Source of the DNA: Eledone cirrhosa
Lineage: Eukaryota
Length of the DNA: 64,000 nucleotides
Assembly: GCA_964016885.1 (NCBI GenBank)
Contig: OZ024741.1
Coordinates: 33,728,001-33,792,000 of the forward strand
Reading direction: 5' to 3'
Part shown: piece after piece, positions 400-64,000 of the stretch
Layout of the letters: every line of letters begins with the position of its first letter
How positions within the stretch are numbered: position 1 is the stretch's first letter
Program-made: the position numbers and the translations under genes
The notes under the pieces: generated by a model
Database searches by the model: none
Told to the model about the DNA's origin: nothing
Seen by the model: the letters and a program-made list of their open reading frames with translations, nothing else

Positions 400-2990
400 C
401 TTTTTTTGTTTAATATAAGGAACTGTTTCATTGTTTTATTCATTATTTGTTTAATATTTTATCTTGACTCTGTATTCCGTTTATCTTTCACCGAAAGTGA
501 TTTTTCATTACATCTCTTCTTTCCATGATATCCGGAATACATTGAGTTCTTCATACGGATTGGACACTACCGTAAACTCTTGGTAGATTTATCTACATAT
601 ATATATATATATATATATATATATGAAGGCATGACATATTGTTAATATGATATCCCTGAAATATATATAATGAAATAAATATGGTTTTATAAATATAGTT
701 TCCATTTATTTAATATCATATATATATATATATATATATATTAGTAATTGGAAAGACCAACGGAAACATTGTTTCCTCGGTCCGATTTGACGAAAGTTGA
801 TCGACTGTCGATAGATAGATAGATAGATTATATACGCATATATACATATATTCAAAAAAAGGAAATAAGTGTTTCTTCACGTGCCACAAGGTCATGGAAG
901 GAGACATGTTACAAGTGAAAGAGCCGAAACAGGAAACCACGAAACAGTGAAGGTTTTACAAGACTGGGTCAAAACAATACAGAAACGTCTTCGAATATGA
1001 GTTTGTGTTGGGGGAGAAAAAGCGGGACTGACATAGAAAGAAAGTGGGTGTGTGAGAGAGAGAGAGAGAGAGTGAGAGATTGAGAACGTGATTTAGTGAG
1101 AGATATAGTGAAGATGTGTGTGTGTGTGAGAGAGAGAAAGAGAACGTGATTAAGTGAGAGATGTTGTGAAGATGTGTGTGTATGAGTGATTGAGAGATAT
1201 AATGAAGATGTGTGTGTGAGAGAGAGAGAGAGATAATGAAGATATGTGTGTGAGAGAGAGAGGAGGAGAGGGAGAGAATGAGTAAAAGAGAAAGTGAGTA
1301 TGACAGTGATTATGTGGGTGAGAGAGAGACGAAGTACATAGTATATAACTGTGAGAAAGAACATCAGTAGGTAATAAATACAAACAGAAAGAGAGTGTGA
1401 GTAAGTGAGAGAGAGAGAGTGTGTGTGTGTGTGTGTGTGTGTGTGTGTATGTGAGTGTTTAAAAAATAGAGAGAGAGGGGGGGGGGGGGTGGAAAGATGG
1501 AGGAGATAGAAAGAAAGAGCTAGTGTGGGCGAGAAATTGAGAGAGAGAGAGAGAGATTTCACGCACAATGAAATGTTCAGCTGTGTTGTGTGAATGGTGT
1601 TAAACTGGCCCAGATATTTAACACAGTTTAACAATAAAAACTTAGTTTGTTAACGTAGAGAGAGGTTAAAAAAAAGAGAGAGAGAGATAAAGATTAGTGG
1701 GTTTTAGTTTGACATTTTCTCTCCGTCTGTCCTTCCTTCCTTCCTACATTCCTACCTTCCCAACTTTCCATATTAAACTAGTATTCCAGAACGAAGAACA
1801 CTGTAGGCTTTGATAGTAAGGGCTTCCGAACAACACTAGAGCTGGTGCGTGATTATATATATATATATATATATATATATATGTGTGTGTGTGTGTGTGT
1901 GTGTGTGTGTGTGTGTGTGTGTGTGTGTGTGAATACATATATATATATGTTCCCAGGTACGAGACGAAACGCCTTATACAATAGAACACCTACACATAGT
2001 GAGAATAGATAAGAAAAATACAAGAGAATATTTAGCTCTTTAGCTGACACGCCTGCCTAGAGGCAAATATATATATATAATTATGTGCATTCATGTGTGT
2101 GCGTGTGTAAAAATATATTCTTTTCGTTTGCCGATTACAATCATTAAATTACGGTCATACTGAGAGCGCTTTTATGTGTAAGTATGTATATATATATATA
2201 TATATATATATATATATATATATATATATATATATATATTTATTATTATTACTATATATATATATATATATATATATATATATATATATATATATATATA
2301 TAATATATATATATATAGTAATAATAATAAATTTGAAGACTAAAATCCAAAGAGGGCTCGATAAGGATATATATATATCAAATATATAAGAACCGTAGAG
2401 CAAATATTTATTAAAATAACAGATTAAAGTTTAAGCAAAGAATCGCTGCTTTCACCCTTAACGGGATCTTCTGAAACTAACAAAGTCAATCTGTAAACGC
2501 AGAAGTGGATATTTCAAAAAACGTTGCAGCCGGAGGAAGACAGGAAGACGATACTTTGGTTCGTGGAAACGAATATATAAAACATGAGAAGAAAGAAGAA
2601 TACTGCGTGGTTGCACATGGGTTACATATGATAAAAATAGTCCTTCGTCAGTGATTTTCCAACCATCATTGATATTTCATCGCATTAAAAATCATATACC
2701 TCAGGTTGGTGCGAGCAATAGCTAAATAAAGCTATTGGGACAATCGCGTAAAGCGAGTGAGACAAGTAAACAACATAGAAGCATGAAAGCAACGCAAAGA
2801 TAGGAATAAACAAGCAACATGGTTATCTGGTCAGCATAAGCTGGGTGGATTTCATGAGCGATCGTGATACAGACCGTCCGACCGTGAGTGAGACCCCACT
2901 ACAAGCCAAACGGGAGGAAGTGAGAAGGGGAGAAACAGAGAGTGAGTGAGTGGAAGTGCGAGGAAGTATATATATATATATATATATATA

Positions 2991-3230
2991 GGAAAAAGTA
3001 TGACCCCGGCGGCAGAGCTCAAGCCGTTTCGACGTCCAGAAATAGCCGTCGAAACGGCTTCAGCTCTGCTGTCGGGGTCATACTTTTTCCTATTTCCCAC
3101 TCTACTACTCTAAGTATTGAGTACTCTCGTGCGTTATGGTCCATCTGGTTCCTTACCACATTTCCTTTGTTATATATATATATATATATATATATATAAC
3201 AAAGGAGATGTGGTAAGGAACCAGATGGAC
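2991..3230. mobile_element. Fold-back pseudo-LTR fragment, family B (hammerhead 3' half plus tail), between (TA)n tracts
   Basis: Inverted repeat 2991-3033/3047-3090; second inversion across (TA)n 3139-3170/3199-3230; related copies at 56203-56336, 60127-60237, 60752-60956, 62089-62225. Confidence 0.7.
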
Positions 3231-3421
3231 TATATATATATATATATATATATTATATATATATATAATATATATATATATTATATATATATATATATTT
3301 TTTTTTTTTTTTTTTTTTTTTCTAAGGCGGGTAAAATTCCCGAGATCCATGGACGAGTTCTCTCCAGCGGTCTCTGTCCCTCATTATCGCTGCCATGCCC
3401 TGCGTCTCCAATATATATATA

Positions 3422-3560
3422 AAGGCTAAATAGTGAGTCTTGTTACTCTGGAGTTTTGCCTGTTTAGTAACAAGACTCACTATTTAGCCTTAATAAAATG
3501 AATAATAAAACTCTACTTCGGTATTGAGTACTCCTTTTTTTCTCAGCCGTGATCAACATA
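3422..3560. mobile_element. Fold-back pseudo-LTR fragment, family E
   Basis: AAGGCTAAATAGTGAGTCTTGTTACT inverted at 3422/3491; second copy at about 12028-12090. Confidence 0.55.
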
Positions 3561-3658
3561 TGGATATATGTATGCGAAAAGTAAACGGAAACAATCATGC
3601 AAACAACACAGTACAGAAAAAATATATTAGTTTTACACTTGATATGGGAGGAAAAGAG

Positions 3659-61222: not shown

Positions 61223-62225
61223 TTGAAAGAGTTACCTCTCTTTATAGACTATATTATCCCTACTTAAACGTACATCCCTTGAAATTGTTGATGGTGACCC
61301 CCAATAGTAACTCCGAAGCGTTCGGCATCCGATATAACAGTTCGGTCTATATCAGATTGGGTAGATTTGTGTAACCTTAAAAGTACCCAACTAAATTCCT
61401 TCATGCTCTCCACCACTGCAGTCCCACATGCTTACTGCTCTGTAACTATTGCTTTCATTGTACTATAGCACAACAAATACATGTTCGGTTTGTTGAATGC
61501 CTTTTTACTTAACCCTATCTTCTTGGCTTTCGTCGGTTGAACATATATATATATATATATATATATATATATATATATATATATATATATATATAGTATA
61601 AAAGAGAAAACACACGTAAGCATTAAGAGAAGGATTTTATCCAGGTATTTACGACCGTTTCATTGGTAAGTGCAACCTTATATTGCTATACTGCAAATAG
61701 CAGCCACTCAATTATAATTGTTGTTCACAGTCCAAATTTTCAAAATAGTAAGTTACTCTTGAAATAATTCTTAATATATAGAGAAAAACATTTATTTGGA
61801 ATTGTATTTACTAGTATAGAGAGAGAGGAATCAGGAGGTGAGGGGACAGACGGAATAGTATAGAGAGAGAGGAAGGGGGAAGAGGTAGGAAGTAGAATGA
61901 CAAACTGAGATGGAGGGAGGGGTAGAGGTGGAAGGATTCCTTGGTCAGTTTTGATAGCAGACTTCATGTCGTGGAATGTAGTGAGTTAAAGAGAATTAAA
62001 TTGATCATAGTGGGAGGGATGGATAGGGAGGGAGAGAGGGGGGAGATATAAAGAGATAAATATATATATATATATATATATATATATAACGAAGGAAATG
62101 TGGTAAGGAACCAGGTGGACCATAACGCACCAAAGTACTCAATACTTGAGGTAGTAGAGTGGGTAATAGGAACCAGTAAGACCCCGACAGCTGAGCTCAA
62201 GCCGTTTCGACGGCTAATTCTGGAC

Positions 62226-62588
62226 GAATGTAAAGTTATAACTGACACCAATTCCTTCACCTATTTTGGCTCCACTTCCACCTCCTTTAAAGCTCGTCTT
62301 TATAATCATCATTCGTCTTTTAAATACCAACTTAAAAGAACCAACACGGCTCTCTCAGAACTCATATGGTCCTTGAAAGACAAAAATATTAAATATAACA
62401 TCTCTTGGAAAAAGGTTTCTTCTGCTTCTCCATACTTGAACAGTTCTCTATCCAAGACTTGCAATCTCTGTCTAAATGAAAAATTTACCATTATATCTAA
62501 TTTAGATTCTATAATAAATAGACGCACTGACTTGTTTTCTCTCTGCTTGCATAAATTCCACAGAACATTCCATAAAGTATACAGCTAA
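62226..62588 (+). pseudogene. 5'-truncated GIY-YIG endonuclease of a second PLE lineage
   Basis: TYFGSTSTSFKARLYNHHSSF...TALSELIWSLK...I.W...CNLCLNEK..I....INRR...C.H; fused behind an inverted family B fragment. Confidence 0.82.
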
Positions 62589-63568
62589 TATCCAAAACTT
62601 TATCAATTTAGAATCCTTTTCTCAAAGGCACATATATATATATATATATACTTCTTTAAAAATATACCCATCTTTCTACCTTATTTCAAAGTTATTTATT
62701 ATACATTATATAATACTTGTTACTCATTCTATATCACTCCTATTTATCACTTCCCTTTCTTCCTTTTCCTTTTCTTTTCTTTTCTTTTTCTTTTAATTTC
62801 TAACCCCTAATCTGTACCTTTTCTCACTGTGCCTAACATAGAAACAATTATTACACAATACAATATATTCTTACTTTATATCACCTTGAAAAAATCCTTC
62901 GTAAACATAAACACTTTTTTTGACGTTAGATTATTCATCCTCAATTCATTATTTTTTTCTCACTTTCATGTTTCATCCTATCTTCTACTTTTTTCACAAT
63001 ATATCCTTACTTACATTACCTTTGCTATTTTTAATAATACATATCTACATTTTCTTTCGATCGCACATATTATTAAACCCTTAAATATTATTCTTAATAC
63101 ATATAAACATTTTCTTTCCATTGCACATATTATTAAACCCTTAAATATTATTCTTAATACATATTAACAATTTCTTTTCATCGCACATATTATTAAACCC
63201 TTCAATATACAAACCTTAACTTTACATTATTTTTCTCTTCGTTAATTTTCAAATTCTTTTAATTTATACATTATCTTCCAACGGTTTTTCAACCTCTCTA
63301 TGTAAAACAATGTATTTTCTCAGTTATAAAAGCTATCTCTCTCTCTCTATCACCCATCTCTCCTCCTATCTCATCCTTCCTCATTATACTCCTCCTCCTC
63401 CACTTTTTACTCTCATCTCCTCCTCTTTTTTATCCTTTCCAACCTCCCCCCCCCCCCCCTCAAAAAAAATTTCCCCAATATCACACATCAATCTAAAACT
63501 AATTTTCATATGTTGATTTAAAACTGCACTATTCACAAGTGTTTTTTAACCTTCATATCATGTCTTCC

Positions 63569-63639
63569 TATTTTATCTGATGAAAACACAAATGTTATTG
63601 CATGATGATATTTGTTTTTGAAATGCGCATAATAAAATA
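63569..63639 (+). ncRNA. Type I hammerhead about 1 kb downstream of the GIY-YIG ORF
   Basis: TATTTTAT CTGATGA ...ACAAATGTTATT gcat GATGATATTTGT... GAAA TGCGCA TA ATAAAATA; stem III palindrome ATGCGCAT. Confidence 0.88.
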
Positions 63640-64000
63640 CTTGGAACTCTTTTAACCATCTTTTGATCTTATATATTATGTATACTCCAGTCCTACAAAC
63701 TGTAGAGTGCTTCTTATCCGATATCTGCATTGCTTTATTGTACTACAATAAAACTCACCTCCTACATATATATATATATATATATATATATATATATATA
63801 TATATATATATATATTCGTAGAATAATGAGAAGAACTCAATGCAAGAAAGCTGTTAAAGCAGCAAAGTGCCGCCAATGACAGCGTTGGGTAAAATGTACC
63901 TCGAAGGACATTATGACTCGTACTCCAACTCGATCTTCGAGAAGACTTAGTATATATATAAACATATATATATATATATGTATGTATATGTATATATGTG

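Follow-up and report, generated by a model that had tools for sequence, protein, structure and literature searches.

Why do dissimilar insertions into (TA)n tracts share the same small bulged hairpin near one end? The question is raised by a stretch of 64,000 nucleotides (nt) from Eledone cirrhosa (GenBank assembly GCA_964016885.1, contig OZ024741.1, positions 33,728,001 to 33,792,000 of the forward strand), here called the window. A first-pass annotation listed seven such hairpins in it and proposed that they serve recognition or priming by the reverse transcriptase (RT) of Penelope-like elements (PLEs), in analogy to the 3' stem-loops of long interspersed nuclear elements (LINEs). Start-site choice by PLEs and the occurrence of a "tail" on only one side of their insertions have been open questions since the tail was first described. 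Judged by their protein motifs, the elements that carry the hairpin are Hydra-clade PLEs. We found that the motif occurs in two copies, hairpin 1 and hairpin 2, and that insertions end just 5' of one or the other. We consider it probable that each hairpin binds the RT-endonuclease of the element and places the start of reverse transcription at the UA patch just 5' of it.

A covarying bulged hairpin

All seven hairpins are present at the coordinates and on the strands first reported, with a TA run 33 to 73 nt downstream (the run past 3529 is short and imperfect). Five of them (467, 3099, 3510, 5130, and 63684) have a whole or partial hammerhead upstream, and two (10260 and 51935) have none. The consensus is RCUC-stem-UN-GAGY-ACU, predicted to form a bulged hairpin in RNA. 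The bulge had been described as a fixed dinucleotide, but only its first base, U, is fixed; the second varies (TT in 38, TA in 13, TC in 11, and TG in 4 of 66 clusters). For other animals, a profile of 26 homologs gave 94 loci; the contigs that hold them come from metagenomes and bins and are presumably DNA of marine host animals. The 3' flank ACU-N-U is part of the motif, with its A, C, T, and T present in 40, 43, 42, and 40, respectively, of 43 clusters from other animals.

The motif is more frequent than the background. A scan under strict criteria (RCTC, three or more upper pairs, T[TA], and GAGY) gave 9 matches in the window against a mean of 0.9 and a maximum of 3 in 100 local dinucleotide shuffles, and 43 matches in 59 held-out 10-kb loci (590 kb) against 11.8 (maximum, 20) in 20 shuffles. 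When a TA run within 110 nt downstream was also demanded, 38 matches were left in the same 590 kb, compared with 1.7 (maximum, 4) in the shuffles; TA runs are themselves dense, with 27% of random positions having one within 110 nt. The scan for a 5' bulge that served as a control amounts to the reverse complement of the motif and is not independent. Matches of a relaxed scan formed 39 clusters, corresponding to ~25 to 30 real families with dissimilar flanks, and the strict-scan counts extrapolate to ~180,000 motif copies in the 3.0-Gb genome. Beyond the seven hairpins, the window contains copies at 62160-62137(-), 40857-40839(-), and 2401-2356(-) and mutated ones at 56264, 57412(-), and 36588(-). 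Rfam at gathering score gave no match in the window, hammerheads included.

The upper stem was first noted to change in sequence while keeping its pairing, and the pairs indeed covary across families. We counted pairs after locating the motif by CTC and T.GAG only, with no pairing demanded, and compared the counts with those for shuffled partners. Upper pairs 1, 2, and 3 are Watson-Crick in 40, 28, and 24 of the 43 other-animal clusters, compared with 22.8, 12.4, and 11.3 in the shuffles, and none of 5,000 shuffles reached the observed counts. The closing pair is Watson-Crick in 17 of the 23 multi-copy clusters of the Eledone genome (9 GC and 8 AT; shuffle, 9.2), a count that includes all 23, among them 7 that are antisense images, mis-anchored, or probably chance. 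The third pair was also found swapped (GCAC/GTGC; loci L247 and L251). Controls with slid partners gave no pairing signal, and the 32 singleton clusters, mostly chance matches, gave no upper-stem signal. We rely on these letter-anchored counts because pair counts on the seed of our covariance model (9 hand-picked 20-nt hairpins) and on the alignment fitted to the model lean toward structure. A MAFFT alignment of the 43 mixed-length hairpins left the 5' arm unaligned and was not used.

The elements that carry the hairpin

The open reading frame (ORF) that ends at 62588 belongs to an abundant family, family D (56,821 first-look candidates), and covers the endonuclease end; its 3' untranslated region (UTR) passes a hammerhead at 63577 and reaches the hairpin at 63684. 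Full-length family D copies encode ~800 amino acids (aa) with the motifs RWIA, DKT, YRDD, CxCX5C, CxxC, and CxH. The motifs RW[K/R/I], DKT, CxCX5C, CxxC, and CxH are diagnostic of the Hydra clade (PMC8557442; this and the other papers cited were available in part, and our statements about them apply to the available parts). RW[I/R] and DKT, which lie in the N-terminal part of the RT, are present in full-length copies of families D (locus L122) and F (L385), whereas family A and the family at 2356 are N-terminally incomplete. CxCX5C, CxxC, and CxH are found together in D, F, and the 2356 family, and the A-linked ORF has CxxC and CxH without CxCX5C. In the Hydra ORFs, CxCX5C is a linker motif, and CxxC and CxH sit around a conserved E and N in the C-terminal endonuclease. 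Pfam and PDB sequence searches with these ORFs gave no match; hence, the assignment to the Hydra clade rests on motifs. Viral contigs contained no relative. Among sequencing runs, no RNA data set was listed as containing the sequence, which says nothing about expression.

Four of the seven window families (F, A, B, and D) are linked to Hydra ORFs; M (3510), J (10260), and K (51935) are without such a link. (TA)n was confirmed as the insertion target of the hairpin families. A canonical hammerhead, with predicted cleavage, can be read from the sequence in A, B, D, F, J, and M; such a reading found none in K, which keeps hairpin 1 all the same. Families K (~550 nt; L354, 950-1680) and J (~459 nt; L365 and L366) are ORF-less tandem monomers. 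The 3' UTRs of Hydra elements are very long in this genome, ~3.3 kb in family F (L385, 3458-6850(-)) and 1.2 kb in family D (62589-63765), and both hold internal (TA)n runs; at most loci from other animals, ~50 to 300 nt precede the hammerhead.

Twin hairpins and the two ends of insertions

Two copies of the motif lie between the hammerhead and the start codon, downstream of the hammerhead cleavage site. Of the 101 covariance-model matches, 95 are on the sense strand, and none falls in coding sequence, which makes up 59% of the bases. For 57 ORF starts, 130 nt or more of upstream sequence was available; a hairpin is present at 49 of them and two at 33. The twin copies are 55 to 75 nt apart, and hairpin 2 begins 34 to 69 nt before the ORF start.

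Insertions end either 0 to 8 nt before hairpin 1, which gives a tail-less arm, or just before hairpin 2, which gives a tailed arm. An optional one-sided tail of PLEs was already known (PMC3846280 and PMC8557442); in the Hydra elements studied here it measures ~50 to 135 nt, hairpin 1 included. The seven hairpins of the first-pass annotation are copy 1, inside this known tail, and the 35 to 75 nt that it gave as the register to the downstream TA junction corresponds to the spacer that separates the two copies. What sets that junction is the second copy, itself absent from the insertion, and the register that is fixed is the one to the end just 5' of the hairpin.

For families F and B, the samples of ends were chosen without regard to the tail, and F was queried with upstream sequence only. 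Of the 25 family F ends, 11 coincide with the end of the tail and 14 lie at -4 or -1 relative to hairpin 1; of the 25 family B ends, 8 are tailed, 16 directly precede the hairpin, and 1 lies elsewhere. Family D ends, chosen by protein, are at the hairpin foot or at +82. One tailed arm is joined to one tail-less arm in 13/13 pairs of family A and 7/8 of family B (random loci and window), in 14/14 of family D, and in 5/5 of family F; at loci partly chosen for the tail, one arm of each kind was found in 47/48 cases for A and 29/34 for B.

Copies that continue past the tail show hairpin 2 within the next 8 nt in family D and the next 12 nt in family J, and in other animals it comes 4 to 11 nt after four of five tailed ends. 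Hence, each of the two ends is positioned directly 5' of a hairpin, at 2 to 5 nt of TA microhomology with the target. Of 40 TA junctions scored, 14 are without a continuing homolog and 6 are internal TA tracts rather than ends. Both copies are retained in the ORF-less tandem family J. In family D the long, ORF-bearing arm is the tail-less one at 10 of 14 loci and was therefore not copied from the short arm; the two arms are also truncated at independent points, and they look like separately primed cDNAs. Past the tail end of family K and of family 6, a further family from the relaxed scan, we noticed at L335, L354, and L041 the sequence TCTCC.AG with CTATTGA some way after it, possibly a degenerate hairpin 2, which was not counted. 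The relevant features of the window are as follows.

255 to 390, plus strand: hammerhead core with long stem II, family F (3' end of a Hydra PLE), identified in the sequence; the family is tied to an 813-aa Hydra ORF in L385
467 to 547, plus strand: hairpin 1 of family F with a long upper stem, tail to 596; of 25 copies, 11 end at +130 and 14 at -4/-1
2356 to 2401, minus strand: hairpin 1 of a further Hydra family, with a TC bulge; ORF link in L034, L120, and L124
2988 to 3034, minus strand: tail-less inverted arm of family A, which stops 5 nt before the hairpin position
3051 to 3073, plus strand: hammerhead of family A, of which the 3' half is present (GAAA, stem III, and cleavage site)
3099 to 3122, plus strand: hairpin 1 of family A, tail to 3170; in L390 the family lies ~780 nt after a Hydra ORF
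3510 to 3529, plus strand: hairpin 1 of family M; tail-less copies stop at about -6; no ORF link shown
5112 to 5130, minus strand: hairpin 1 of family B, at least 22 nt past the hammerhead at ~5200-5153; in L388 and L389 the family extends into the start of a Hydra ORF
10260 to 10281, plus strand: hairpin 1 of family J (~459-nt tandem monomer with its hammerhead elsewhere); no ORF link shown
36567 to 36588, minus strand: decayed hairpin 1 of family B
40839 to 40857, minus strand: hairpin 1 of family B; tail-less partner arm at 40914-40965(+)
51935 to 51961, plus strand: hairpin 1 of family K (~550-nt tandem monomer); no canonical hammerhead and no ORF link shown
56264 to 56287, plus strand: mutated hairpin 1 of family A
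57393 to 57412, minus strand: mutated hairpin 1 of a B-like family; tail-less partner arm at 57488-57550(+)
60766 to 60955, arms on both strands: inverted pair of family A, with the tail-less arm at 60805-60766(-) and the tailed arm at 60824-60955(+)
62137 to 62160, minus strand: hairpin 1 on a family A arm (62219-62089) that meets a family D copy head-to-head
62220 to 62588, plus strand: end of a Hydra-type endonuclease ORF, 5'-truncated, family D (CxxC and CxH)
63569 to 63639, plus strand: hammerhead of family D, read from the sequence, with its core from 63577 and a predicted cut after 63631
63684 to 63708, plus strand: hairpin 1 of family D, tail to 63765; in full-length copies hairpin 2 lies 8 nt beyond

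A model for the start of reverse transcription

The proposed cis-element for RT recognition or priming holds up as a conserved, covarying, sense-strand element of PLEs, and its link to the RT is probable. We hypothesize that the protein, probably as a dimer, binds both hairpins on an uncleaved multimeric or circular RNA, a template suggested by the location of the hairpins 3' of the hammerhead cut, and that it cuts both strands of the (TA)n target. Each 3'-OH would then anneal to a UA patch, 2 to 5 nt long, that precedes one of the hairpins by 0 to 8 nt. A cDNA primed before hairpin 2 would include hairpin 1 and the spacer, which together form the tail, and one primed before hairpin 1 would give the tail-less arm. 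Joining of the two cDNAs at their 3' ends would yield a head-to-head insertion with the tail on one side. Tentatively, we extend this model to a two-site docking code, in which each subunit of a dimeric, telomerase-related RT might bind one bulged stem and align a cut (TA)n end on the adjacent UA patch, like the primer alignment of telomerase, so that one RNA gives two cDNAs. If true, such a code would supply the first defined RNA signal for PLE initiation, account for both the one-sided tail and the head-to-head structure, and provide a portable motif of ~25 nt for internal priming. A resemblance of the bulged stem to P6.1 of telomerase RNA and to hepadnaviral epsilon is conceivable.

Several observations weigh against hairpin-directed initiation. 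The motif is absent from 8 of the 57 ORF starts. Past the tail end, hairpin 2 is unrecognizable in family K (3 continuing copies) and family 6 (1 copy), it is degenerate in family B and has a non-UN bulge in family J, and no copy continues past the tail end in family A (0/92) or F (0/24). The distance from end to hairpin differs by family (0 to 8 nt), which implies that the UA patch sets the exact base. The cluster rows are related by descent; hence, the shuffle values given above are not probabilities and overstate significance. Energy minimization yields the bulged fold for only 3 of 9 copies in the window, and the fold is weak in the majority, which suggests an element stabilized by protein. 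G-U pairs outnumber A-C mismatches by 21 to 13 over five pairs, which does not demonstrate RNA over single-stranded DNA. Moreover, a Neptune-like family of this genome has two preferred 3' ends ~45 to 55 nt apart without an RCUC hairpin.

The weak G-U bias would also fit a motif that acts in DNA, be it single-stranded, in a cruciform, or as a near-palindromic GAGYRCT duplex. The substrate would then be a tandem intermediate or a longer cDNA, which the endonuclease would cut at TA sites on the 5' side of each hairpin, and this resolution would set both ends. Craig et al. explain the tail by resolution through the endonuclease (PMC8557442), Frangieh et al. refer to the Drosophila virilis tail as required for endonuclease recognition of plasmids (PMC11167929), and the TA-like patches at both ends resemble the target. 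However, the tail bounds of an anole PLE coincide with RT start sites in vitro (PMC11167929), the fourth base of the conserved flank ACU-N-U is variable, so that the palindrome is not kept, and the arms have independent truncation points, as expected for separately made cDNAs. We regard resolution in DNA as unlikely. A role of the hairpins as operators near the start codon, which control ribonucleoprotein assembly or translation (cis-preference and autoregulation), is comparably doubtful. It would account for the proximity of hairpin 2 to the ORF start (34 to 69 nt), and if the ends arose from UA-rich patches annealing to (TA)n, the 0- to 8-nt distance from end to hairpin would track the position of the TA microhomology, as it does. 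It would not account for ends that occur only at the two hairpin feet, though the 3' UTRs offer many other TA-rich sites, nor for the retention of both copies in the ORF-less family J, and it leaves one arm of each kind unexplained.

The hairpin could instead be a barrier, with the tail end as the sole RT start and a fold-back second-strand synthesis that stalls at hairpin 1 and is finished by microhomology joining. Short stubs are near-perfect fold-backs centered on the hammerhead stems, and self-priming was proposed for rotifer PLEs (PMC3846280). This scenario is largely refuted by family D, in which the tail-less arm is long and ORF-bearing and the tailed arm is short at 10/14 loci; the tail end, moreover, is itself at the foot of an uncopied second hairpin, and we give the barrier very little credence. 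It is more improbable still that the motif is a neutral remnant or artifact, i.e., shared ancestral sequence in which the tail-less ends were created when other insertions later hit an internal TA patch. Common descent of the families and the density of TA runs given above fit this reading, but compensatory changes without flank similarity, the strict pairing of tailed and tail-less arms, and the presence of the motif in coral and sea cucumber consensus sequences all speak against it.

Relation to known systems

[quoted passage not shown] In contrast, each Hydra hairpin lies downstream of its start, and the starts are internal and two in number. The analogy to LINE 3' stem-loops therefore had to be given up: the hairpins are paired copies 3' of the hammerhead cut, in the 5' UTR of the next unit.

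The elements described here share with the published Hydra clade of C-terminal EN+ (endonuclease-positive) PLEs the protein motifs, the hammerhead, the (TA)n target, the inverted truncated arms, and the one-sided tail, but the published tails measure 30 to 40 bp rather than ~50 to 135 nt (Craig et al. 2021; PMC8557442). Neither "stem-loop" nor "hairpin" occurs in the main text of that paper. The closest biochemical parallel is PAc, a Poseidon element of an anole (Frangieh et al. 2024; PMC11167929), whose RT begins synthesis at two internal positions downstream of the hammerhead, which form the bounds of the tail. It extends both strands of the target, needs RNA ~55 nt downstream of the starts, and uses uncleaved RNA, and the protein is predicted to be a dimer (PMC11167929). 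PAc differs from the Hydra elements in that it belongs to another clade and its starts are located in an AC-rich stem-loop inside the ORF, described as nonhomologous to the target; the available part of the report mentions no conserved, duplicated, covarying motif (PMC11167929). Families J and K, as ORF-less tandem monomers of ~460 to 550 nt that derive from pseudo-long terminal repeats (pLTRs), resemble the animal non-long terminal repeat retrozymes (PMC7229834 and bioRxiv 10.64898/2026.07.22.740005), although K is without a canonical hammerhead. As far as their available text goes, the two retrozyme papers name no mobilization signal, and "hairpin," "stem-loop," and "bulge" do not occur in that of PMC7229834.

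The motif is apparently undescribed: it is found neither in Rfam nor in the PLE literature searched, a search that reached few papers behind subscription and did not extend to the original D. virilis work. The available parts of PMC11167929, PMC8557442, PMC3846280, PMC7229834, PMC4209133, and bioRxiv 10.64898/2026.07.22.740005 describe neither the motif nor its register. The Hydra clade, the hammerhead, the tail, and internal initiation were already known; what is apparently new is the cis-element and its register to the ends. The sole in vitro study found two internal starts and no defining signal, and a duplicated, conserved motif whose register to both ends is fixed makes this directly testable. 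Because PLE RTs are the sister group of telomerase, their mode of RNA recognition is relevant to how telomerase originated. The motif also has a practical use, as it marks the true boundaries and the orientation of Hydra elements and of their ORF-less derivatives.

Distribution and clade limits

In the other animals, the motif follows 48 of the 74 hammerheads with at least 110 nt downstream; 11 of the remaining 26 meet a TA run, 10 of them within ~70 nt. Inspection by eye of the six published Hydra consensus sequences (File S7 of PMC8557442, as available) identified the strict motif in three, Hydra-2_Amil, Hydra-1_Ajap, and Hydra-2_Ajap, i.e., one from a coral and two from a sea cucumber. The Hydra-1_Ajap consensus opens with two motif copies. 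Hydra-1_Crog has a variant motif and Hydra-1_Amil a partial one, and Hydra-1_Obim, whose consensus stops ~30 nt past the hammerhead, has none.

The first-pass annotation had assigned the element to PLEs at large, but it is a feature of the Hydra clade. In this genome's Neptune-like family, which targets TA, all 20 hammerhead ends examined lack the motif, and in Naiad/Chlamys consensus sequences no hairpin was seen by eye at the 17 places of five 8-mers; Penelope/Poseidon and Nematis were outside the comparison.

Further observations

The window contains other hammerhead-bearing repeats. An inverted insertion of the Neptune-like PLE family named above, at 19675-22503, encodes a C-terminal endonuclease with CX2-5CxxC. 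A 310-bp tandem repeat at 17388-19600 (6.2 copies), with a hammerhead in every unit, has an inverted arm and two ends that differ by ~45 nt; no RCUC hairpin was seen in it. A further family with a hammerhead core ends in TA runs at 3690(-) and 33767(+), and these copies are without an RCUC hairpin. Hydra PLE ORFs with (TA)n junctions were also found in contigs filed as bacterial bins (L247-L263), probably contamination with host-animal DNA.

At 62089-62225, the tailed arm of family A meets the 5'-truncated ORF of family D head-to-head with a 2-nt microhomology. An arm of the Neptune-like family is found at the same kind of D junction in L093, and most D junctions are self-inverted. Such mixed-family junctions may be cDNAs of two different RNAs that were joined in one event, or they may reflect later deletions.

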